A stretch of 64,000 nucleotides of DNA from Escherichia phage W70 (OP778610); one strand, 5' to 3'; shown: positions 25,724 to 54,624, counted from the first letter of the stretch. The notes: generated by a model not told the origin, from the letters alone. Made by a program: numbers and translations.

Positions 25724-25732
25724 GGAGAAAGA

Positions 25733-26374
25733 ATGGCAGAGGTTACAGAAAAGAAGGATGTTAACCACATCCATCCTCTGCCTGATTTCGTCAAAGGGGG
25801 TATTGATTACTTACCCCCTGAGATCTTTGAGAATAAAGATAACATCCAAAAGGTCCTTGAGATCTTTTTGAAACGTCTTGAACTCATCGATCAGAAAGCT
25901 GTTGAACTGGCAGAGATGAGAACAATCATCAATGCAGAGGGCGACACTCTCGACGAGATAGGCAGACAAAACGGTATCTTCCGTAACGGATTGAATGATC
26001 CTGAGTACAGGGCTGTTATTATAATCCTTACAGGTATCGGATCTAAAAGTGGAACAAGATCTGAAATTATATCCACACTGAAGCAATTATTCGGTGAAGA
26101 GGGTGTGACTACTTATAAAGGTAGAAACTACCGTATGGATATTAACATCTTCAATACCTGTGTGGAAGTTGAGCTTATTCTTGACCAAATACTTGATATG
26201 CTCCCTCTGGTGACTCACTTGCGAGTTGTGGAGAATCAGGGATACCCGTTTGGATTTGAGGGTGACGAACAAGCATTTGGGTGGGCATCCGTCTACGACA
26301 CTGATCGTACTGGCGCGGGTGGACTTGCAACTTTAGTTTATGTATCTGACGACGAAGACCCTTGGGGCTTTTAA
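25733..26374 (+). CDS. baseplate protein (putative, gpI/gp48-like position)
   Basis: 213 aa ORF. Confidence 0.35.
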   Translation: MAEVTEKKDVNHIHPLPDFVKGGIDYLPPEIFENKDNIQKVLEIFLKRLELIDQKAVELAEMRTIINAEGDTLDEIGRQNGIFRNGLNDPEYRAVIIILTGIGSKSGTRSEIISTLKQLFGEEGVTTYKGRNYRMDINIFNTCVEVELILDQILDMLPLVTHLRVVENQGYPFGFEGDEQAFGWASVYDTDRTGAGGLATLVYVSDDEDPWGF

Positions 26375-34167: not shown

Positions 34168-34203
34168 AGAAAAGGCGCTCAAATGAGCGCCTTTATTTTT
34201 ATC
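34168..34203. terminator. bidirectional rho-independent terminator between convergent modules
   Basis: aaaggcgctc-aaatg-agcgccttt hairpin flanked by an A-run on one side and a T-run on the other. Confidence 0.7.
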
Positions 34204-34215
34204 TAAATTTTACGA

Positions 34216-35391
34216 TCAAAACGGAATATCGTCGTCAAAATCCATATCATCTACAGACATATTTACATGTCCTTCAATATCAGGGGTAGGTGAATCTTCT
34301 GCTGACGGAGTTAACTGCGGTTCCGGCTCAGGTTTCTTTTCCTCTTGCTTAGGAGTTGAAGCACCGTTACGGATCTTATCTTCCAATTGACAGATGAATC
34401 GGAAATTCTCTTCAGTCTTAGCAATAAAGGTTTCGATATTGTCACGACCCCAACGGGCAGAAAGAATGCCACACTGGCCTAAACGAGCACCGAAAGAGTA
34501 ATCATCCATAGATTTAAACTCTTCACGCAGTTTTGCTTTGATCGAATCCATCGCTGCAAGAACTTGTTCTACGATCACACCCTGATTTGCAATAGTTTCA
34601 TCAGGGAACATTGCATCGGTAATAGATAGTGCATTACCTAAACGAATAGGTAGATCATCTTTACCTTTACCTGAACGTGATCCTGTTCCAGTACTTGCAC
34701 CTTTTGGACCGTAAGCTTTAAAGCCTGTAACCGTACCATCATCTGAACGAACACCTGCAATACGACCACCTTCTGTAATCTGACCCGTCTGTTCATCAGT
34801 GAGGTTTACAGTAACTTCTGTGCCGTCTTCCAGCTTAACAACTACCTTATTGCCTTCGATAGATGTGATATCACCATAAATCTTCTTAGCTGCACCACCA
34901 GACGGCTTTTGCTGCTGTTGGGAACCACTTGATTGCTGCTGTTGCTGACGAGGCTCACGAGCACCGGATGCGTCAGTAATCTTGATACGTGCTTTCTTAC
35001 CTTCTGTAGAAGAACCTTGACTACCATCTTGTTTGGTATAGGTCTTGATAACAACAGGTAAACGAATTTTCATACCCTCTTTAAGATCGGTGTAACCACC
35101 TTCAGGATTTTTAATCTGGAACTGATTCTCATACTTCAGATTTTTAACTTCACCCTCACCAAAAGAAATCCATGCTTGATCTTCACCTTCTTTAAGAAGA
35201 ACCGCATAGCGGTGGGTATTGTTAATGCTTTTCTGCTGACCAGTATTCTTGTCTTTGAAGGTAGTCACTCGTGGGCTACCATCTTCATTAATACGTTTGA
35301 TCATGATACGTTCAATCGTACCTGCTGCAATGTTTACTGTGGTATCGGAAACAGCATCGTATACAGCATTGATAACTTTAACTTCAGACAT
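34216..35391 (-). CDS. ssb: single-stranded DNA-binding protein-like, with E. coli SSB-type acidic tip
   Basis: 391 aa; Gln/Gly-rich linker (QQQQQSSGSQQQQKPSGG); C-terminus DDMDFDDDIPF matches the E. coli SSB tip MDFDDDIPF as I recall it. Confidence 0.55.
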   Translation of the reverse strand: MSEVKVINAVYDAVSDTTVNIAAGTIERIMIKRINEDGSPRVTTFKDKNTGQQKSINNTHRYAVLLKEGEDQAWISFGEGEVKNLKYENQFQIKNPEGGYTDLKEGMKIRLPVVIKTYTKQDGSQGSSTEGKKARIKITDASGAREPRQQQQQSSGSQQQQKPSGGAAKKIYGDITSIEGNKVVVKLEDGTEVTVNLTDEQTGQITEGGRIAGVRSDDGTVTGFKAYGPKGASTGTGSRSGKGKDDLPIRLGNALSITDAMFPDETIANQGVIVEQVLAAMDSIKAKLREEFKSMDDYSFGARLGQCGILSARWGRDNIETFIAKTEENFRFICQLEDKIRNGASTPKQEEKKPEPEPQLTPSAEDSPTPDIEGHVNMSVDDMDFDDDIPF

Positions 35392-35474: not shown

Positions 35475-35855
35475 TTAGAGATAAACTCGCTTAACTTTTT
35501 CATGAACATTATCAAACAAAGTGTTGATCATCTGCAAGTCTTTAATAAGTTCTTCCGTAAATTGTTCTTCTTTGTGAGCAAACACACGAGAACGGTCAAT
35601 GTTTACAGGATCTGAACTTTGGTCGCCTGACAGATCGAAAATGTCGATACCGATACGAGCACGGCCTTTTTCAATCTTGTTGTTTTCATCAATACCGAAG
35701 ACACTCATGATTTGCATTTCACGATCTTCTTCACTGTTTGTGTAAATGATCGTCGTATTCAAATTCTTAACACCATCGTAAATGTGAATGTTACGTGTCG
35801 CAGAGATAGGAATCCAATCAGCAACCAAATAATCTTTACCGTCGAAAATACTCAT
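35475..35855 (-). CDS. hypothetical protein
   Basis: 126 aa ORF. Confidence 0.5.
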   Translation of the reverse strand: MSIFDGKDYLVADWIPISATRNIHIYDGVKNLNTTIIYTNSEEDREMQIMSVFGIDENNKIEKGRARIGIDIFDLSGDQSSDPVNIDRSRVFAHKEEQFTEELIKDLQMINTLFDNVHEKVKRVYL

Positions 35856-35909
35856 CTTCTTTCCTCTTTTGTTTAAGTGGGGCCATTATGCCCCACACTT
35901 AACTTTCTG
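35856..35909 (-). promoter_or_regulatory. sigma70-like promoter candidate overlapping a hairpin
   Basis: On the - strand, TTGACA, 17-nt spacer, CATAAT; the -10 sits in the loop of a GTGGGGC/GCCCCAC stem. Confidence 0.3.
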
Positions 35910-36482
35910 TCAAGGACGTTTCGGTGGACTAACGACACCTTTTTTAGATAAAGGTAATTCGTCTGCATCTTTTCCACGGAGAGATTCTAACCACTCATCT
36001 AAAGATAGAGGTACTTTGCCAACACCCTTGGACCATACAGATAAGCAATACAGGTCGTATGCAGATGGGCCAGCATCACCCTTGTCACCATACGGCCCTT
36101 TTAAACTCGCCAACCAATCCTTTTCATTCAGTGGGATAGTGCCTGGATCTTCTTGTCGAAGAACTCTTAGGTATGTTTCATAAGCAGACTCTCCACGGGG
36201 ACCCATTGGACCAGGTAAACCTTGCGGTCCCTTTGCATAGTCTAAATATGCAGACTTTGAACCATCATTGACCACTGAAACTTTATACAATGACCAAGCC
36301 AACAGAACTATCCAACAAGCAAACAATGCAAGCGGGTAAGGGATCATTGAAGTAAAGAATGACAGGGCTAAAATTACAACCTTGTTCTTGTGATCACGAC
36401 GGAAAGCGATGATCACAGGGGCTAACCAGATAGCAAAGATAACCCACGCAGATAAGATAAACAACCAACTAATGTATTCCAT
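35910..36482 (-). CDS. membrane protein: superinfection-immunity-like N-terminus fused to collagen and tail-fibre repeats
   Basis: 190 aa; N-terminal about 65 aa with two hydrophobic helices and motif PVIIAFRRDHKNKVVILALSFF; then GPQGLPGPMGPRG and two SAY...WL.SL(K/R)G repeats like those in the 7003-10803 fibre protein. Confidence 0.6.
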   Translation of the reverse strand: MEYISWLFILSAWVIFAIWLAPVIIAFRRDHKNKVVILALSFFTSMIPYPLALFACWIVLLAWSLYKVSVVNDGSKSAYLDYAKGPQGLPGPMGPRGESAYETYLRVLRQEDPGTIPLNEKDWLASLKGPYGDKGDAGPSAYDLYCLSVWSKGVGKVPLSLDEWLESLRGKDADELPLSKKGVVSPPKRP

Positions 36483-40606: not shown

Positions 40607-40984
40607 CTATACTCCAAATGTGGATTTGATTTCAGCAATAACCTCATGCACATTGTTTTCGTTTACTTCAAATGTGTAGGACGTTGGTTTAAGGAACGTC
40701 TGAGGTGAAACATTAACAAAGAATTCAAATTCATCATTAAAAATTTCAAAGTATTTTCCAGGTGTTGATTCTTGGCTTTTGAAAACAGTACCATCTTCCA
40801 TAGTAACAGAAGAAACAGATTTTTCACCAAGGGTGTATGTTTTTAGCTCGTCAACAACGAAACTGGGGCCGTGGCGACGGAGTATTTCAACCATAGTTCG
40901 GTTAGCTCCACAAATACCAGTACGATTAATAAATAACTCTTCACACCGAGGATTGAGAATATAAGTTTTTCCTACTTGCATCAT
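40607..40984 (-). CDS. Glu/Asp-rich small protein, tandem paralogue 1 of 3
   Basis: 125 aa; conserved VGKTYILNP, HGP.FVV, EDG, E.EF.F, I.EIKSTF. Confidence 0.55.
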   Translation of the reverse strand: MMQVGKTYILNPRCEELFINRTGICGANRTMVEILRRHGPSFVVDELKTYTLGEKSVSSVTMEDGTVFKSQESTPGKYFEIFNDEFEFFVNVSPQTFLKPTSYTFEVNENNVHEVIAEIKSTFGV

Positions 40985-40994
40985 TACAATCTCC

Positions 40995-41354
40995 TTATGC
41001 TAAGTTAAATGTGGATTTGATCAGGTCAATAACCTCTTGTGCGTTGCTCTCCGACACAGATACCTGAATAATTTTAAGGTCGCTGACCTCTTCAAAGTAT
41101 TCGAACTCAGATTCACGAAGTTCAAAGTACATTGCCCCACAGCCCACACTGAATGAATCACACCCTACAGCACCATCTTCTGTTGTGATGTTATTAACAT
41201 ACTCATCACCTTCGATCATGCTCATGTTGTTAACAATAAATCGTGGCCCGTGCTCATCCAGAAAAGAAACAATCTCGTGATTGTAACTTGGGTCAGCCTG
41301 AATAAATTCTTCTACGAGTTTTGGATTAAGTTTATAAGTTTTTCCGACTTCCAT
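40995..41354 (-). CDS. Glu/Asp-rich small protein, tandem paralogue 2 of 3
   Basis: 119 aa; same conserved blocks, C-terminus IDLIKSTFNLA. Confidence 0.55.
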   Translation of the reverse strand: MEVGKTYKLNPKLVEEFIQADPSYNHEIVSFLDEHGPRFIVNNMSMIEGDEYVNNITTEDGAVGCDSFSVGCGAMYFELRESEFEYFEEVSDLKIIQVSVSESNAQEVIDLIKSTFNLA

Positions 41355-41365
41355 CTTTGTTCTCC

Positions 41366-41740
41366 TTACGCCAGGTTAAAGGTAGCTTTAATCAAATCTA
41401 AAGTTTCTTGTGCATTACTACGAGAGACGGCAACCTGAATAATAACAGGGTCTTCATCTTCCCCGACTTCTTTGAAGAAGGGAAATTCACTCTCTGCAAG
41501 TTCAAAGTATACACACTTGTTACCTTCGCAGTCGTGAAAAACGTCACTACCTAAAGTACCATCTTCAAATATGACATTGTTAACATATGCAACATTATCA
41601 TAGAAGTGGGTGGTGTTGACAACAAATTTAGGACCGTGCTTATAAATAAGGTCAACCAATTCTTGATTGTAGCTAGGGTCCATATTGATAAAAGCTTTTT
41701 CTAAGTCTTTATTAAGAATGTAAGTTTTTCCGATTTCCAT
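41366..41740 (-). CDS. Glu/Asp-rich small protein, tandem paralogue 3 of 3
   Basis: Start set at internal MEIGKTYILN (ATG about 41740) with SD gaggag; C-terminus IDLIKATFNLA. Confidence 0.55.
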   Translation of the reverse strand: MEIGKTYILNKDLEKAFINMDPSYNQELVDLIYKHGPKFVVNTTHFYDNVAYVNNVIFEDGTLGSDVFHDCEGNKCVYFELAESEFPFFKEVGEDEDPVIIQVAVSRSNAQETLDLIKATFNLA

Positions 41741-41769
41741 CTTTGCTCTCCTCTTCAGTTGATGGATAC

Positions 41770-41799
41770 ATCTTAGTTGATATAGACATGTCTTGTCAA
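41770..41799 (-). promoter_or_regulatory. sigma70-like promoter (TTGACA, 18 nt, TAAGAT)
   Basis: Between the polymerase terminator and the paralogue array on the - strand. Confidence 0.4.
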
Positions 41800-41809
41800 T
41801 AACTTTTTG

Positions 41810-41843
41810 CACATAAAAGAAAACCACCCTTCGGGGTGGTTTA
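41810..41843 (-). terminator. rho-independent terminator after the DNA polymerase
   Basis: aaaccaccc-cgaa-gggtggttt hairpin followed by a T-run on the - strand. Confidence 0.65.
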
Positions 41844-41848
41844 AATTA

Positions 41849-42148
41849 CTAGTGGCACGCCCCCCAGTTCATCCCTGTGAGGTATTCACCTGTTATGTGG
41901 ACAGGAGATTTCATCATTCGTGCTGCTTGCTCTACACAACGAACAACCATCTCTCCAACTGGACAATACATGATCGTGTAGATTCCATTCTCATCAGGAT
42001 CACACTTAAACTTCCCTTCTTTCACACAATGACCATCCAAGATCATTTTCTTAGCCAAGCAAGCTTCTACAAATTTCTTCGCGTCAGCTTCGTTGTCAAA
42101 GGTCCAGGTCTTCTTGAACTTGTGCGGTACTTCAAGCTGGTATTCATC
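41849..42148 (-). CDS. DNA polymerase (family A), exon 2
   Basis: Begins DEYQLEV (completing motif C HDE with the His that ends exon 1) and ends TGMNWGACH, resembling the T7 gp5 C-terminus as recalled. The Met at 42199 in the ORF track lies inside the intron. Confidence 0.75.
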   Translation of the reverse strand, partial: DEYQLEVPHKFKKTWTFDNEADAKKFVEACLAKKMILDGHCVKEGKFKCDPDENGIYTIMYCPVGEMVVRCVEQAARMMKSPVHITGEYLTGMNWGACH

Positions 42149-42920
42149 CAAAAGTTTAACGAGGTCGTTACTCTCGCCCACATCATTACATGTTGCCATA
42201 CGTTTTCACATATGGATCGGACTATATCACCATCCTTTTCAGGATGCTCCCCATTTCGACGGCACTTGCTCGCCTACGCCTCTCGGCTAGTCTCTGAACG
42301 TTAGGACCATGTGTAGTCACAAGAGATGTGTGTCCAGTTTTTACGGATTTTTATGGACCTTACCACGTTGTAAGGATAACCCATATCCCGAATCTGTGCA
42401 CTTCCATAACCTTGCCCCAGGAAGTTGCAAATCTCTCTAACCTCTTCTTCGGTAACTATACTTCTGGCGTTATCAACCCCTGTTGCTGAACGACATTTAT
42501 CAGCAAAGGTTTTCTTGATATTTCCACCACGAGTTGTCCATTGGAGGTTTGAATAGTGGTTATTCCTTTTGTCAGGCCACTTATGATCAACCTCCGGCAA
42601 ACCTTCAGGGTTTGGTACAAAACACTCTGCCACCAAAACGTGAACAGCCTTTGTAGTCGTCCTTTTGTTGAGATACAGACTTACAATAAGATACCCACGT
42701 CCATTATCAACTGCCGCCATTGGTTTCCCTCGACGACCTATAATGGTCCCGTCTTCATAAACCTTGTAACCGAAATAATCTTTATATTCCACATGATCCT
42801 CTTCGCTGCTGATTAACATAGTCTCATACTAACTCACACTTGAATTAATATCAACCTTAGTCTTCCAGCAATTAAAGGAGTTTTCGATGTGAGTTACCTC
42901 ACAAAGCCACAATGTTACTT
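42149..42920 (-). mobile_element. group I intron with HNH homing endonuclease, in DNA polymerase motif C
   Basis: About 772 nt between ...YYH and DEYQLEV; - strand carries R element GUUCAGAGACUA (42288-42299) and S-like GAUAUAGUCC (42219-42228); 5-prime exon ends in U, intron ends in G. Confidence 0.75.
42301..42819 (-). CDS. HNH homing endonuclease (intron-encoded)
   Basis: 172 aa; AVHVLVAECFVPNPEGLPEVDHKWPDKRNNHYSNLQW is typical of phage HNH endonucleases; sits wholly inside the intron upstream of the R element. Confidence 0.8.
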   Translation of the reverse strand: MLISSEEDHVEYKDYFGYKVYEDGTIIGRRGKPMAAVDNGRGYLIVSLYLNKRTTTKAVHVLVAECFVPNPEGLPEVDHKWPDKRNNHYSNLQWTTRGGNIKKTFADKCRSATGVDNARSIVTEEEVREICNFLGQGYGSAQIRDMGYPYNVVRSIKIRKNWTHISCDYTWS

Positions 42921-45251
42921 ATGGTAATAGATAATACGTCTAACGCCTTCATCATACCAACCTTTCTTAACCAACTGCCAGTGCAGGAGGATACCCACCA
43001 AGTCAAACAGTGCAGCACCACCATTCTGCTGATAAGCATTAAGCAATGAGTGTTTGGAACGAGTGTAGATCTTACGTCCATCAAGACCGTAGATGAATCG
43101 CTTACCGTTAGCTTCCCAAAACTTCTCTAGTGCTTCTTTACGACCTTTCAAGCCGATGTTGCTATCCCAGAATGCGTCGATTACTGCCTGGGCCTTCTCA
43201 AGAGTGATCCCCAGCATTGATGCAATCTTCGCTGCCTGTGCCCCGTACATAATTCCGTATGTCACACCTTTACCTTCACCACGAGAAACCTTCTTCCCTG
43301 CCGCTTTGGTATACGCTTCTGCGTTTCGGGAGTGAGCATCTCCAGATTCCATGATACGAAGATAAGCACCGCCATCGAAATCATAAGCGCCCCATGCTGC
43401 GATCATACCTTCTAGGTTTGAACCGTCGATACCTACCTGATATTTACCCTCAGAGGCTCTGAATAGTTCACGCATCTCTTTACCGAGAAGAACTTTCTCA
43501 TCCGGCTTAGGTACGTTTGCTACGATCGTATGCTTACGACGACCTGTGTTAGTTATTCCACTATAACGGGCCGGAAGTTTACCGTCAACTCGTAGACGTG
43601 GATGGTTAAGCCATCCGGTATCAACCTTCTCTTCTTTCAGCGGGTCAAGAACAGATCGTCGGTTACGTAAAGACAGCCATTTAACAATCTGTTTAGCCAT
43701 TTCACCATCTACTCGCTCAAGGTTAGGGCAAAGACCCTGTTGATCCTTAAGTTGTGGAGATGTAGGTAATGCACGAGCTTTCTTACGGAAAAACTTGAAC
43801 ATCTTTTCTTTATCTGACCACTGCTTAGGTGTGATCGCCAAGCTTTTCAGAATCAGATCACGATACTCCGTCTGATCCAAATCTTCAATGTATTGACGAA
43901 CAATCAGATCAACTTCACTATCGGGACGTTGTTTCTTGAACTGATCTTTAGTTGCATCCTTTGTACGCCAAATTGTTGGGACCCATCCTGCATCACGGAT
44001 CAGGAACTTCTTAACGTCGTCCTGGTTACCAATACGCATCGGAATCATAATGTCCGGCATCTTTTGTTCTTTGATATCCATCAAAGCACGAGCCATATCT
44101 TCCGGCGGCAAAGGAACAAGCCCTTGCTGCTTAACGTTTTGTGCACGGATAAAATCACCCATTTTGGATTCGTCCTCTACACCGTGTTCAACACAATACT
44201 TGATCGCGGCAGCAGTAAGAGATCCGTCAGCCTTAAACGGCTTACTTGGTGCACCTTTAAATTCCAAGGCTTCCCAATTGATATTATAACCTAACTTCTC
44301 TAACCATTTCCAACCTGTACCGGAAAGAGATCCATCACCCTTGAAAGGTTTGGATGGGAATGTCGGTTGTGCTGATTTCGACATCTCTTTCTTCGGCAAC
44401 TTAGGTTCAACCTCTAACTCAATGTCAGTCATCATCTTATCGATACGATCACGAAGCTTGAGTGCTTTTTCTTCATCAAATGAAACACCCTGAATTTCTT
44501 GCTCAATCATCAGGTAGTCAGTCAACATACCTCGACGCAGGGCATTCTTCCAGTTGATCATTTTATACTTCTTCTGATCTTTGTCTGTTTCATCCTTAAA
44601 CATGAAGCGTTTATCATCCGGCATGGATTCACAGGAGATCTCTTTCATCAGAGCATCCCACACCATTTCGTTGATAATTACGTCTTCAATAATACGATCG
44701 CAATACTTCCAAAGTGGAAGGCCACGCCAATCTTCAATCGCCACTTTCTGGTTAGCTACTCGCATACCCCAAGCTTCAAGCCCGTGTGGCCCTACAGGCT
44801 TCATTTTACCTGTGACGGGGTTCTTTACCATCTCAGGACAACCGCGAGGCAGAGGGCGATCTGGATACAATGTACGGGACATTGAAAGTGTATCGAAGAT
44901 GGTTACTTGTTTACCATTGATCGTCCCCATGCAACCAGGGTCTGCAAACATATCGTAAGTTGTTCCTAGCATCTTCTTAAACAACTGGAGGTCATAGCCG
45001 AAGATGTTGTGGATAGCAACTGCTTTAGGCTCGGTAACGAACCATTCGTTTAATTCTTCAAGGGTGCGGATCTTGAAGTTTTTACCTTTAGATTGGATAA
45101 ATTTAACAGCTTGATCGTAACCTTCTCGCTGTGGATCAAGAAAGATGTTCCAGTTATCTTTTTTGTACTCTTTAAACAAGATGCAGTGGATTAGATCAAC
45201 TTCTGTCAACAGACCATTAGCTTCCGCATCTCCAATAAATAAGCCTTTCAT
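42921..45251 (-). CDS. DNA polymerase (family A), exon 1
   Basis: N-terminal exonuclease motif (FIGDAEANGL), motif A-like GIDGSNLEG, motif B RGEGKGVTYGIMYGA; the track ORF terminates at an in-intron stop just after YYH. Confidence 0.85.
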
Positions 45252-45693: not shown

Positions 45694-45941
45694 ATACTTG
45701 CTTCTTTGAGGCGATCTTTAGCCTTAGATAAGCAATCAGATGCAAAAAGCACGGAATCTAGATCCCCTTCGGGAATCGAAGAGTCATTAGCCAGTCGATT
45801 ATATTCCTCAATAATCTCGTCTTCTAATGCTTTTAAAATAAGACCTAAACGAATTTCAGCATCTTTAATGGCATTCACCTTACCGATTTTTTCATCGGTG
45901 TGTGGTTTGTAGCCCTTAATGTCATCAATAGCCATTACCAA
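45651..45941 (-). CDS. hypothetical protein
   Basis: 96 aa ORF. Confidence 0.45.
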   Translation of the reverse strand: MVMAIDDIKGYKPHTDEKIGKVNAIKDAEIRLGLILKALEDEIIEEYNRLANDSSIPEGDLDSVLFASDCLSKAKDRLKEASMWACRGVFRPEEKY

Positions 45942-46423
45942 TCCTCTTCTGTTTGTTCATACTCGGAAGGGGTGATGAAGTAATTCTGCCCCCGCTTGCA
46001 CTGGTTGAAAGTCCCAACATACCAAGTACCGATATCCATGTTGATGAAAGTTTCTTCTTGAACAAAGATCAGATCAGTAAGATTATTGTCTGATCGTTGG
46101 GTCGCTAACAAAATATGCTCAAAATCTGCTAATGTTATGTTGTAACAGAAACCATCTTCGTCCTCCATAACTGCAACAACAGAGCTACGCCCTTGGGTGA
46201 ATTGACGAAACTGTAAACGTAAATGACGATGTTCATGTTCATTCGTCTTCACCTTTTTCCGATTTTCGAAATATTCTTCGGAATAATTTGGATGCTTTAA
46301 TTTCAGCTTTTCGATCTCTTCGGTAGAAAGAGCATCCTTATCCCAACCAGTAAACCATTTACCGTTATCATTAAATACCGCAGGGTATTTACGCTTACTC
46401 AAATCTTTAAACATTTGAATCAT
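45935..46423 (-). CDS. hypothetical protein
   Basis: 162 aa ORF. Confidence 0.5.
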   Translation of the reverse strand: MIQMFKDLSKRKYPAVFNDNGKWFTGWDKDALSTEEIEKLKLKHPNYSEEYFENRKKVKTNEHEHRHLRLQFRQFTQGRSSVVAVMEDEDGFCYNITLADFEHILLATQRSDNNLTDLIFVQEETFINMDIGTWYVGTFNQCKRGQNYFITPSEYEQTEEDW

Positions 46424-51449: not shown

Positions 51450-51962
51450 TCAGAAAGGTGCTTCGTCGTCGAAATCTACATCTTCAACTTCCGGTACATC
51501 AGGAATGTCACCTGCGGATTCAACGATACTCTGTTGTTCCCACGTAGGTTCCTCTGAAGGTTGGTCCATTTCTTCCATAACCTTCTTGATCTCTTCCTCT
51601 TGCTCACGCAGGAAGTTATCATCCGGCTCAGGAATATCTTCCTCTTTAATATCTGAACGAGTGAGATCACTGTTTTGTTCAGACAGAGGTTGAATCTCTG
51701 CTGCTTTAGGCTTAAAGTCTGGAGAACGATGATCATCTTCTGGATGAGCGGCATACCACTCACGAAGAGTTTCATAAGGACTCTCTAAGAAGCCCTCTGG
51801 CGGTTCCAGATAATCACCCGTATCAATGTCATAGAACACAGGGAATTTACCAGCACGACCGTGTTTACGGTCATCCAGAATAACAAAGTAAGAAGTGTTA
51901 CGTTGTTTCATCGGGAGTTCTGGATCTTTGTTACGTTCAATTCCCCACATATAGTAAGTATT
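51450..51962 (-). CDS. primase-helicase (T7 gp4-like), exon 3
   Basis: Begins about NTYYMWGIERN (resembling T7 LSDTIIALERN as recalled); ends with acidic tail ...EDVDFDDEAPF with terminal Phe. The track's N-terminal 64 residues are intron sequence. Confidence 0.7.
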   Translation of the reverse strand, partial: NTYYMWGIERNKDPELPMKQRNTSYFVILDDRKHGRAGKFPVFYDIDTGDYLEPPEGFLESPYETLREWYAAHPEDDHRSPDFKPKAAEIQPLSEQNSDLTRSDIKEEDIPEPDDNFLREQEEEIKKVMEEMDQPSEEPTWEQQSIVESAGDIPDVPEVEDVDFDDEAPF

Positions 51963-52808
51963 CTTTATGTCCAGGCTACTCGCTAGGTAGCCTCGGTGTG
52001 CTAAGACACCCGCCCATACTTTCATACAGGAACAGACTATATCATCACCTTTCGGTGCTCTCCACTTCGGAACCGCTTGGTCCCTACGCCTTTCGGCTAG
52101 TCGTTGAAGATTTTGCATATTCAGGATACATGGTCCAAGTATACAGATTGGCAATTTCTTTCCAATCCCTTTTGCTTCGGATGTTTAGAACAACCGCCCT
52201 TTTAACTTGAATGCCACTACTTTCGGCTATTCTCTTTGCAGTCCATCCCTCTGAAAGTAACTGGCATATCTTATGCACGTCGTTTTCAGAAAGTCCGGTA
52301 CTGTAATGATCTTGCCCTCTAATTGGTAATTTGTTTTCTATCGAGTGTCGAAGATTTTCCTCTTCTGTTACCCACTCAAGGTTATCTTTATGATTGTTCA
52401 ACTTATTACCGTCTTTATGATTTACCTCTGGTAAATTTAAAGGGTTTGGTATATAAGCCTTCGCGACCATCCTGTGAACATACTCAGGCTTCCGCTTACC
52501 ATTTAAGATAACATTAACAACAAAATACCCTGTACCCTTACTTAATGAATTTTTAAGGAATCTTCCTGAAAATTCACTAAAAACTTGTCCATCTTCAGTG
52601 ATAAAGTATGGACTGTTTTCTTCTATTCTTACCATAAGTCCCCTCTTTCATGGGACCAAGATCTAGAATATGCAACTTTCCTGCTGATTACCCAATCCTG
52701 TACCTTTTTAAACATTCACGCTTGCCTTTGCAGACTACGTTGTAGTGTTACAGGCTCTAAGGGCTTCCCAGCAATTCAAAGAGTTTTAGATGCGCTCTAC
52801 TGCTGTTA
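51963..52808 (-). mobile_element. group I intron with HNH homing endonuclease, in helicase motif H4
   Basis: About 846 nt; R-like CUUCAACGACUAGCC (about 52093-52107) and S-like GAUAUAGUCUG (about 52033-52043) on the - strand; 5-prime exon ends CGU, intron ends in G; 3-prime boundary good to roughly +/-20 nt. Confidence 0.7.
52084..52635 (-). CDS. HNH homing endonuclease (intron-encoded)
   Basis: 183 aa; YVHRMVAKAYIPNPLNLPEVNHKDGNKLNNHKDNLEW; similar to the polymerase-intron HNH. Confidence 0.8.
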   Translation of the reverse strand: MVRIEENSPYFITEDGQVFSEFSGRFLKNSLSKGTGYFVVNVILNGKRKPEYVHRMVAKAYIPNPLNLPEVNHKDGNKLNNHKDNLEWVTEEENLRHSIENKLPIRGQDHYSTGLSENDVHKICQLLSEGWTAKRIAESSGIQVKRAVVLNIRSKRDWKEIANLYTWTMYPEYAKSSTTSRKA

Positions 52809-53402
52809 ACGCATCATTGCACGGCTACCAGCAAACTGCGCTGACTGGACTTGACCACCAAATTCATGAGGCTTGCCAGATTCAGGCTTATTAAGGTGAC
52901 AGAAGCAATAATAAGTAAAGCCAAGCTCTTTTGCCAGTTTGGAGATCTCATCCGAGAATCGTTCCAGTTCCTGGTTAGCTTCAGAAGCACTCATACCTTG
53001 CACAAGACGAGTGATCGGGTCAATAAAGATATCTTCACAACCTTCTACGATCACTGCGTGACGGATAGCACCTTTCAGTTCATCCCATACTGCACGACCA
53101 TAGTTGTTATAATAGATAACACTATCACCAACTTCATCAGTAGCTTTGATCAGTTCTTCTTGCTTAAAGTATCCACGTTGACCTTCAAAAACTTCATTGC
53201 CCCAAATGTCACGGTAAGTTCCATCTTCTTGAGGAATCATTACCTTTTCGGCATTAACAAAGTCTTTATGATAACGCTTACCTGCGATCTTCTTACAAGT
53301 GATCTCGTTCTCTTCTTCAAACTTAAACACCGCAGCTTTTGACTTTTCAATACCCGTGATGTGTTCAACCATTTGGTTAAGAAGTTCAGACTTGCCCATT
53401 TT
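52809..53402 (-). CDS. primase-helicase (T7 gp4-like), exon 2
   Basis: Begins KMGKSELL (rest of Walker A), contains CFCHLNKPESGKPHEFGG and ends FAGSRAMMR, resembling T7 gp4 CHLKNPDKGKAHEEG...RGSGALRQ as recalled. Confidence 0.75.
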
Positions 53403-53688
53403 CACCGTTATGTTCGACAGGGTTCGCTACTCCCTGCCCGTTCTCTTACGAACTGCTACATGTCCCCATGCAGACCAGACTATATCTTCAACCTGTTTCC
53501 AGGTGCTATGCACTTCGGACCGCTTGGCCCTACTCTACTCGATTCAAGAGTCTAGCTCTTGTCTTTCGATAGTCGTTGCTCCTTCCTTTTTCAAGGCTTG
53601 GATCAGGATTACGTGTTCTACGCTTCCCCTGAGTTCACATAGTATTTAGTCGAGGCATCTCTGCCAAGGCTGGCTAGACTTAATGTTT
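53403..53688 (-). ncRNA. ORF-less group I intron in the helicase Walker A codons
   Basis: 286 nt between ...FIGAG and KMGKS; - strand contains P/Q-like CAGGGGAAG and AAUCCUGAUCC, R-like CAACGACUAUCG and S-like AAGAUAUAGUCU in the canonical order; 5-prime exon ends in U, intron ends in G. Confidence 0.7.
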
Positions 53689-54624
53689 ACCAGCACCGAT
53701 GAAGTAACCTTCACCTGGACGACGACCCAAGGTAAGCTTGGTCATGGTGGGCCAAGGGAACTTCTTGCCGAGTTTAGGGATCTCATGTGCCTTTTCGCGG
53801 AACTGTGAATAAGTCGAGAAACCATCAGGCACATATTCTTTTGGCTTCATTGCAGCCCAAAACAACTGATCAGAAAGACCTTTGTTATACATATCGCAAG
53901 GGTCCATATCTTCTGGAATATCCACGACCTTCATTTGTGGAATTACAGAGTATACCGCTGCAACTGCATCTTTACCTTTCATGATCCCTTTGGCCTTCTC
54001 TGCTTCTGTCGCACGGTCAGCATCGAAAGCTACGATAATCTCTTCAAACTTACTCAGAAGCTTATAGTTATTCTTCTGTGATAAGTTTTGCACGGCATTG
54101 GATGTACCGTTAGAGATAGATACAACTGTGAAGTTTGGTTTACGAGTGGAACCATCCTTCGGTTTGTACTTCTCTGTCAATACCTGCCACAAGATTGCAG
54201 CATCGTATTCACCTTCAGTGATAAAGATCATACGTTTGGAAGACTTGTTTGCACCTTCCAGACCAAACATATCACAGGCTACAGATTGGAAACCGATAGT
54301 TGTAAAGTGCCCTTTCTGTTGCTTAGGGATCGTAAGATCACGCTTTTTAAAACCTACAACCTTACCTTCCAATGTGTACGGAAAATAATGTGCTTCTGGA
54401 GTCATACCGTCTTTAGCTGACAACTTGGTACGAATACCAAATCGTTTAGCTGTCTTTTCGTCGATACCACGCTCAGGGATACTTTTACACGGGTAAGTCA
54501 ATACATCTTCAACTGTTTCTTCCACACGAGACACACCGCCGCCATAATTACGTGCCACCGAAGCTTTAGGGTTTTTATGTCCAAACTTATAACCGCCAAA
54601 CAAACTTTCGCCAATAGTGCTCAT
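53689..54624 (-). CDS. primase-helicase (T7 gp4-like), exon 1
   Basis: TOPRIM-like motifs (FITEGEYDAAIL, VAFDADRATEAEKA), then helicase N-terminus ending ...RRPGEGYFIGAG; SD AAGGAG plus ATG at 54624; no Cys4 zinc finger before the RNA polymerase domain. Confidence 0.8.

Follow-up and report, generated by a model that had tools for sequence, protein, structure and literature searches.

What is the function of a phage protein that ends in precisely the same residues as SSB, the protein with which its host binds single-stranded DNA, and which partners would such a tail contact? The question is posed by a gene of Escherichia phage W70 (OP778610), of which we analyzed a stretch of 64,000 nucleotides (here called the window, and numbered from its first letter). 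The gene concerned is the following:

34216 to 35391, minus strand: coding sequence of the 391-amino-acid SSB-like protein (ortholog of A73_119; PHROG 4477), from the list of open reading frames (ORFs) and its translation, with an ATG start.

A plus-strand reading of the same interval yields no ORF and was rejected. The explanation that we favor, and consider probable, is that this gene encodes the phage's own replicative SSB, of a non-canonical type, which serves a T7-like replisome and whose C-terminal tip reaches the host SSB interactome and possibly also the phage polymerase.

The tip itself is the most direct evidence. The E. coli SSB C-terminus, taken from the SEQRES records of PDB 1EQQ/4MZ9, ends in ...SNEPPMDFDDDIPF, and its last nine residues are identical to the MDFDDDIPF of the 391-amino-acid protein, which ends in ...GHVNMSVDDMDFDDDIPF (a longer version reads ...EGHVNMSVDDMDFDDDIPF, and the peptide covering the tip is VDDMDFDDDIPF). 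A preliminary description of this DNA had recognized the host tip and had put the protein at twice the length of a bacterial SSB; both statements are correct, the lengths being 391 and 178 amino acids. The abstract of PMC7913777 describes the “SSB-Ct” as just these last nine amino acids of SSB. The probability that a 9/9 C-terminal match arises by chance is about 20^-9. Moreover, the tip is present in 95 of 97 homologs, where its positions -8 to -1 are D (100%), F (92%), D (98%), D (76%, mostly E otherwise), D (98%), I (91%), P (100%) and F (100%). The enterobacterial host that the tip had suggested is also confirmed: the window belongs to an E. coli phage of the rV5 group and is as a whole 99.4% identical to A73, a phage of the Vequintavirinae for which E. 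coli K-12 is a host. The two phages are nevertheless distinct, since the primase-helicase gene of the window carries two extra insertions. The 391-amino-acid protein is 100% identical to A73_119, annotated there as a “hypothetical protein”, and it matches PHROG 4477, a family of unknown function, over the whole profile (E 1.4e-80).

The structure of the protein was predicted from the family alignment (mean predicted local distance difference test score, pLDDT, of 78) and its secondary structure assigned by DSSP. The domains, in order from the N-terminus, are:

34972 to 35373, minus strand: N-terminal OB-fold domain, all-beta, residues 7-140, the putative domain for binding single-stranded DNA (ssDNA).

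34888 to 34971, minus strand: Q/S/G-rich low-complexity linker PRQQQQQSSGSQQQQKPSGG, residues 141-168, with a pLDDT below 50 at 149-166 and unconserved in the alignment.

34711 to 34887, minus strand: second, minimal beta-barrel, residues 169-227 (59 residues), with the OB topology b1-b2-b3-short helix-b4-b5.

34369 to 34659, minus strand: four-helix-bundle domain, residues 245-341, a candidate oligomerization or partner domain that holds the equivalents of the DRT10-escape substitutions discussed below.

34246 to 34368, minus strand: disordered P/E/K-rich linker, residues 342-382, with a pLDDT of 39-57 and a semi-conserved GH[IV][DN]M[ST].

34219 to 34245, minus strand: tip MDFDDDIPF, residues 383-391, identical to the E. 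coli SSB-Ct.

The fold prediction proposed earlier as a check thus returns an SSB/RPA-like OB domain at the N-terminus and, in addition, a second small OB barrel. The DSSP elements of the latter are strands at 169-179, 182-187, 192-196, 210-215 and 220-227 and a helix at 199-202, at a pLDDT of about 85-90; K170, G208, G209, R210, F224, K225 and Y227 are near-invariant in it, and its residues 173-197 give a sub-threshold Pfam match to the SH3-like Myosin_N. A second short linker precedes the helical domain, for which our search found no informative structural relative. The C-terminal portion (residues 341-391) has a pLDDT below 60, and below 50 at 346-371. The structural matches of the OB domains are generic; SSB and RPA proteins dominate the longer alignments and the BFVD matches are annotated SSBs.

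With the canonical SSB family, as represented by the E. coli protein (PF00436; 1EQQ/4MZ9), the phage protein therefore has in common a predicted OB fold and a low-complexity, disordered linker that ends in the acidic tip, identical in the last nine residues. E. coli SSB, by contrast, has neither the second OB barrel nor the four-helix bundle and is half as long, and no sequence homology between the two is detectable beyond the tip; the phage protein presumably oligomerizes via its helical domain and not via an OB tetramer interface. The canonical SSB homologs of lambdoid prophages, P1 and the F plasmid also keep a DDDIPF tip and, like the window protein, could use the host SSB interactome with it. 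These are, however, true PF00436 homologs, whereas here the host-type tip is carried by a protein lacking detectable canonical-SSB homology elsewhere, although a distant relationship may exist in the OB fold.

Two of these segments vary within the family in a way that merits description. The C-terminal consensus of the alignment is ...GHxDMxPPxxDFDDDIPF; in the enterobacterial clade a semi-conserved G-H-[IVL]-[DN]-[MY]-[ST] lies 8-10 residues before the tip (34246-34300, residues ~365-382), and in a clade further removed the place of this G-H motif is taken by an acidic-aromatic element that is duplicated, for example PPVDFDDAPPMDFDDDIPF. The helical domain comes in two strongly divergent sequence types. 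The window has type A, KDDLPIRLGNA...DDYxFGARLGQ; type B reads KDNSGMETGHA...DYDxGAxVGHAVLNA or YDPxGVxTGHA (as in phages Bas52 and phi92). Only a few invariant Gly/Ala residues and a near-invariant leading Asp are common to both. The distribution of the two types is mosaic with respect to similarity in the N-terminal domain, a pattern in the sequences that suggests domain swapping.

A relative already described is found in phage Bas52 (Escherichia phage RudolfGeigy), where tblastn matches the window protein to Bas52_0087 (QXV84166.1); in BLASTP the two are collinear (residues 18-391 against 16-408) with 28% identity and an E-value of 2e-21. On the basis of its AlphaFold2 model, a bioRxiv preprint of April 2026 calls Bas52_0087 “SSB-like”: the protein has two OB folds and a C-terminal region that is disordered, and its FDDDIPF resembles the tip of E. 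coli SSB (10.64898/2026.04.29.721553). The same work identifies it as the trigger of the DRT10 (UG17) reverse-transcriptase defense, which Bas52 mutants with D252V or Y351C in this protein evade, and reports that this defense is modulated by the dosage of SbcB, a host exonuclease and known SSB-Ct partner (10.64898/2026.04.29.721553). In our alignment D252 corresponds to D245 of the window protein, an Asp in 12/12 aligned sequences that is at least 90% conserved in both family alignments (A1 and A2), and Y351 corresponds to E337, in a variable column; both equivalents lie in the helical domain. The window protein and Bas52_0087 also agree in their domain order (OB, OB, helical, disordered linker, ...FDDDIPF) and in their location at the end of the replication module. 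They differ, beyond the low identity, in helical type (YDPIGVETGHS...GASVGNAVLNA, type B, against the type A KDDLPIRLGNA...DDYSFGARLGQ) and in the tip (SFDDDIPF against MDFDDDIPF), and they belong to separate Vequintavirinae clades.

A second homolog, bas54_0087, was called “Essential” by HIDEN-SEQ transposon sequencing, with 8 of 57 TA sites hit and its neighbors non-essential (preprint 10.1101/2025.11.20.689424); our own count of its TA sites is also 57. By this analogy the window protein is probably essential as well. Elsewhere, the GenBank record JLBYU08 labels a homolog as a “putative single-stranded DNA-binding protein”.

An exhaustive profile search extends the family to 237 representatives. 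Among 140 new ones, 103 end in an acidic run followed by [IVLM]P[FWY], the pattern of the SSB-Ct across bacteria, and MDFDDDIPF in its exact form belongs to the enterobacterial clade. The tip is ancestral to the whole SSB-like family. The majority architecture of the extended family is a shorter form of ~250-315 amino acids with one OB domain, the helical domain, the linker and the tip, and the most conserved module is the combination of helical domain and tip. This short form occurs in Aeromonas phage phiA009 (phiA009_0077; homolog locus L005, 2162-2932) and in phi92 (phi92_gp156; L008, 1492-2439), as well as in P0231-P0357, and in phiA009 and phi92 its gene follows the polymerase and precedes the tail genes. 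Several short-form proteins end in ...IPFN or ...IPFS. Several MG0656xx records assigned to Campylobacter jejuni phages (“Campylobacter phage A135, C15, A13b, A150, A145, C3, A110a”) match our queries no differently, in identity, coverage and E-value, from rV5-like and phi92-like E. coli phages, which suggests that these records are mislabelled or contaminant.

The replication genes that the SSB-like protein would serve are those of a replisome that is T7-like in its composition. Its principal components in the window are:

53689 to 54624, minus strand: primase-helicase exon 1, the primase part, by splice reconstruction.

52807 to 53405, minus strand: primase-helicase exon 2, the DnaB_C / RecA-like core, by Pfam (DnaB_C) and splice reconstruction.

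51450 to 51960, minus strand: primase-helicase exon 3, ending in ...DVDFDDEAPF, with the tail codons at 51453-51476.

42915 to 45251, minus strand: main exon of a family A DNA polymerase (Pfam DNA_pol_A), a candidate docking partner of acidic Phe tails.

The spliced primase-helicase is identical to A73_82 at 672 of 682 residues, and the one relative of it with a solved structure is T7 gp4 (E 2e-20, residues 51-529). For the polymerase, T7 gp5 comes nearest among solved relatives (E 1e-14), ahead of Taq (4e-8) and Klenow (4e-6), in an alignment that spans the palm and fingers only. The likeness to T7 thus extends to an OB-fold phage SSB with an acidic, Phe-ended tail (gp2.5, PDB 1JE5), to a gp4-type primase-helicase that also carries such a tail and to the polymerase; a test of the 391-amino-acid protein for structural or sequence relatedness to gp2.5 (1JE5) found none.

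Both replication genes are interrupted. The insertions 51961-52806 and 53406-53688 (minus strand), which create the three primase-helicase exons, are absent from A73; the 283-nucleotide one can be identified as a group I intron, with 70.4 bits for Rfam RF00028, which exceeds the gathering score, and the other, of ~846 nucleotides, holds an HNH endonuclease ORF (52084-52635, Pfam HNH_3) and gives a weak group I match (24.7 bits). The polymerase gene is interrupted at 42197-42930 (minus strand), between pieces 42915-45251 and 41849-42199, by a sequence with a group I intron match below the gathering score (39.7 bits, E 2.6e-7) and an HNH_3 ORF (42301-42819). The A73 polymerase is interrupted likewise and is annotated as two “DNA polymerase” coding sequences.

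The helicase tail (...VEDVDFDDEAPF*) closes exon 3 with the ...DFDDEAPF that had been noticed at the outset. Its terminal Phe is widespread: 97 of the 120 best primase-helicase homologs end in Phe, the rV5-like helicases in D[WF]DDxxPF and distant Twinkle/gp4-like proteins of ~570 amino acids in ...GF, ...SF or ...DF. One helicase sub-clade (P0192-P0204) recurrently ends in ...[DE]LPF plus one residue (D, N, Q or E), as in EDLPFD or EIPFN. Among all window ORFs of at least 50 amino acids, four end in an aromatic residue with at least four acidic residues in the last 12, two of them being the SSB-like protein and the helicase. A 162-amino-acid replication-module protein (45935-46423, minus strand; PHROG 7983, of unknown function) ends in ...EYEQTEEDW, and a structural-module protein (25724-26374, plus strand) in ...VSDDEDPWGF.

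Do the two tails of the replisome have the same explanation? The preliminary description had proposed so, with both docking onto the polymerase in the manner of T7, and the strictest version of that idea is that the protein is a replicative SSB whose tip docks only the phage polymerase and helicase, its identity to the host tip being mere convergence on an acidic run plus PF. In favor of this, the polymerase comes closest to T7 gp5 and the primase-helicase to gp4, both tails fit DFDD..PF, a C-terminal Phe is general among gp4-like helicases, and the T7 literature describes the acidic tail and C-terminal Phe of the T7 SSB as mediating its contacts with polymerase and helicase. The evolution of the two tails, however, counts against a common explanation. 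The SSB-like bodies are on average 52% identical (minimum 27%), and still the entropy at tip positions -8 to -1 is only 0-0.43 bits, apart from the D/E alternation at -5. The helicase bodies are much closer to each other (mean 75%, minimum 63%), yet 27 sequences have 27 different terminal 8-mers, in which only the terminal PF and a general acidity are retained. An interface between two phage proteins can co-evolve, as the drifting helicase tail seems to do, and convergence leaves unexplained why the identity is 9/9, with M, I and the inner F among the matches. In addition, the reported link between SbcB and DRT10 points to a host SSB-Ct partner. On balance we regard docking restricted to the phage's own proteins as unlikely. 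The T7-like composition of the replisome stands, and what is disfavored is the single explanation for its two tails: this pattern of conservation would mean that the SSB-like tip is pinned by partners that cannot change in step with the phage, these being host proteins with pockets that host SSB in turn holds fixed, and that the helicase tail behaves as a T7 gp4-type contact within the replisome.

The favored explanation, that of a phage replicative SSB with access to host partners, can accordingly be outlined as follows. The N-terminal SSB/RPA-like OB domain, probably aided by the second small barrel, would coat ssDNA. The four-helix bundle, where the Bas52 homolog acquires its DRT10-escape substitutions, may provide self-association or a partner contact, and the disordered acidic linker would display the C-terminal peptide identical to the host SSB-Ct. 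The main partners of this peptide are most likely host proteins, because it has kept the host sequence in a family that has otherwise diverged widely; candidates are the proteins that bind DFDDDIPF, such as ExoI/SbcB, RecQ, PriA, Pol III chi, RecJ, RecO and Ung. The phage protein could either recruit these interactors of SSB to phage ssDNA or be a competitor of host SSB for them. A contact with the phage polymerase, such as T7 gp2.5 makes, may be added to this, and the acidic ...PF tail of the helicase would be a polymerase-docking tail of the T7 gp4 type. The assignment as an SSB is supported by the identity and conservation of the tip, the homology to Bas52_0087, the essentiality of a homolog, the position in the replication module, the lack of another SSB candidate among ten further ORFs of that module, the T7-like partners, the different constraint on the two tails, the family-wide SSB-Ct pattern and the T7 precedent.

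Several observations weigh against this explanation. At the level of sequence the 391-amino-acid protein lies outside the bacterial SSB family (PF00436), with only a 12-residue tip that aligns: a Pfam scan at E <= 1 gave no SSB match, hhalign of the 58-member family profile against E. coli SSB aligned only 12 tip columns (probability 94.7%), and phmmer and hmmsearch of the PDB matched the tip alone and no SSB domain. For every member of the family ssDNA binding, the central activity, is something that we infer. As to host co-variation, no close isolated relatives with known hosts were found for the members ending in ...DDDLPF. Bas52_0087 expressed alone neither harms E. coli nor triggers DRT10 (10.64898/2026.04.29.721553), and strong titration of host SSB partners is therefore disfavored at that expression level. 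A further objection concerns phages in which the tip is masked: in 15 of the 95 tip-bearing homologs, and in phi92 and Bas54, the ...IPF is followed by ~15 conserved residues such as APVGLQYPNHAIYVL. The alpha-carboxylate of the SSB-Ct is a key contact in the co-crystal structures of ExoI, RecQ, PriA and chi. Since the extension would bury this group, canonical docking of the tip is not needed for the essential function unless the extension is cleaved off. A free C-terminal Phe can likewise be dispensed with, since phages with the extension are viable and in Bas54 the gene is essential, unless the added residues are cut off once the protein has been made. The masked-tip phages thus weaken the case for canonical SSB-Ct docking as an indispensable function.

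What is the origin of these extensions? A comparison of eight junctions gives the answer: an HNH/zinc-finger homing-endonuclease cassette has taken the place of the stop codon, and the extension is its 5' edge. The cassette adds APxGLQY..HAI.xL, and the endonuclease ORF begins within the ...QY... codons in another frame. Cassette loci include L003 3681-4322 (Bas54), L007 3632-4091, L006 3653-3700 and L008 2392-2439 (phi92), as well as L009-L012. Bas54, L007, L010 and L012 have an intact endonuclease gene, and L009 has one with an internal deletion; in Serratia phage Kashira, Salmonella phage SSBI34 and phi92 the cassette is reduced to a stub and the SSB-like tip is internal. A simple insertion of a homing-endonuclease gene, as first conceived from Bas54, was challenged by the extensions without endonuclease in SSBI34 and phi92; a decay series fits these. 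Bas54 and Bas57 show several differences in the last ~30 nucleotides of their common coding sequence near the junction, and the Bas54 tip has a rare D-to-C change (DFCDDIPF). For the window gene itself a hidden read-through extension was rejected: a terminator hairpin follows the stop and there is no in-frame APxGLQY.

These alleles also permit a bolder proposal, namely that it is the host SSB interactome, rather than the phage polymerase, that fixes the tip, that the protein is a hub wiring host partners, notably ExoI/SbcB, onto phage ssDNA in a T7-like replisome, and that the masked-tip alleles (phi92, Bas54, SSBI34, Kashira) are functional variants that shift its host partners and its sensitivity to defenses like DRT10. 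As a whole this is speculative, and we give it a rather small chance of being right.

Could the mimicry be the main function of the protein? It might act as a decoy, sequestering or redirecting host SSB partners, such as nucleases dangerous to phage DNA, through its tip, with ssDNA coating secondary or absent. The exact host tip would fit, as would the effect of SbcB dosage on a defense triggered by the Bas52 homolog and the conservation, above all else in the extended family, of the helical domain together with the tip. The Bas54 homolog is nonetheless essential on K-12, which would be unusual for an accessory counter-defense gene, and two OB folds encoded in a syntenic replication module are not what a decoy predicts; the harmlessness of the Bas52 protein when expressed alone and the viability of the tip-masked alleles also speak against it, and we consider a decoy improbable. 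Still less probable, in our estimation, is a recombination mediator, an annealing protein or a replication-restart/primosome adaptor built on OB folds (RecO-, PriB- or DnaT-like) instead of a general SSB: generic as the OB matches are, the longer ones and those in BFVD favor SSBs, the layout of linker and tip is an SSB hallmark, and no alternative SSB candidate was found among ten further replication-module ORFs. Chance resemblance or an annotation artefact, for which one could argue only that the motif is short, has a negligible probability given the 9/9 identity at the very C-terminus, its near-invariance in 95 of 97 homologs, an extended family of 237 representatives and a conserved ORF with an essential Bas54 homolog.

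The genomic setting agrees with a role in replication. The SSB-like gene is the last in a long replication/early module on the minus strand, opposite convergent tail-fiber genes; synteny around it is the same in Aeromonas phage phiA009. Among ten further replication-module ORFs, to which the search of the 142-kb genome was confined, there was no second SSB candidate; apart from one methyltransferase, their function is unknown. The features immediately around the gene are:

34171 to 34194, both strands: strong bidirectional intrinsic terminator AAAGGCGCTCAtttGAGCGCCTTT, common to the convergent tail-fiber module.

35475 to 35855, minus strand: upstream DUF7325 gene, 126 amino acids (Pfam PF24011, E 1e-27).

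35885 to 35913, minus strand: near-consensus sigma-70 promoter-like site, TTGACA-17-CATAAT (11/12, by consensus match only), 5' of the DUF7325 and SSB-like genes.

The DUF7325 and SSB-like genes are probably co-transcribed. In SSBI34 too, a DUF7325 gene is the direct upstream neighbor, and in loci L009, L010 and L011 it is found further upstream, with one to three genes between; it is not a universal neighbor, since Pfam gave no family common to the upstream neighbors in Bas52, phiA009 and L007. At 35910-36482 (minus strand) the window encodes a 190-amino-acid protein that has hydrophobic segments at its N-terminus and short Gly-X-Y runs resembling collagen; at the equivalent position SSBI34 has faint Pfam matches to Collagen and Imm_superinfect. 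Directly downstream of the polymerase, at 40607-41827 (minus strand), there are three tandem paralogs of 125, 119 and 153 amino acids, all in PHROG 622 (unknown function).

A phage SSB-like protein with the host tip, and indeed this very family, is already described in a 2026 preprint, and the window protein is a divergent new member of it. As far as we have found, the following is new: a frozen tip contrasts with a drifting helicase tail; the family is broad and has two architectures; its helical domain occurs as two sequence types; and the masked-tip alleles originate from a homing endonuclease. Phages like rV5 and phi92 are frequent candidates for therapy against E. coli, Salmonella, Klebsiella and Cronobacter, and almost all their replication proteins are annotated as “hypothetical”; assigning an essential SSB role to this gene would close a gap in their replisome. 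Moreover, a host-identical tip on a protein that has no sequence homology to the host SSB offers a clean system for studying the interface between a T7-like replisome and the host SSB interactome. Finally, this family is sensed as the trigger of DRT10, and its domains and natural variants (A or B helical types, long or short forms, free or masked tips) bear on the prediction of phage sensitivity to bacterial immunity.

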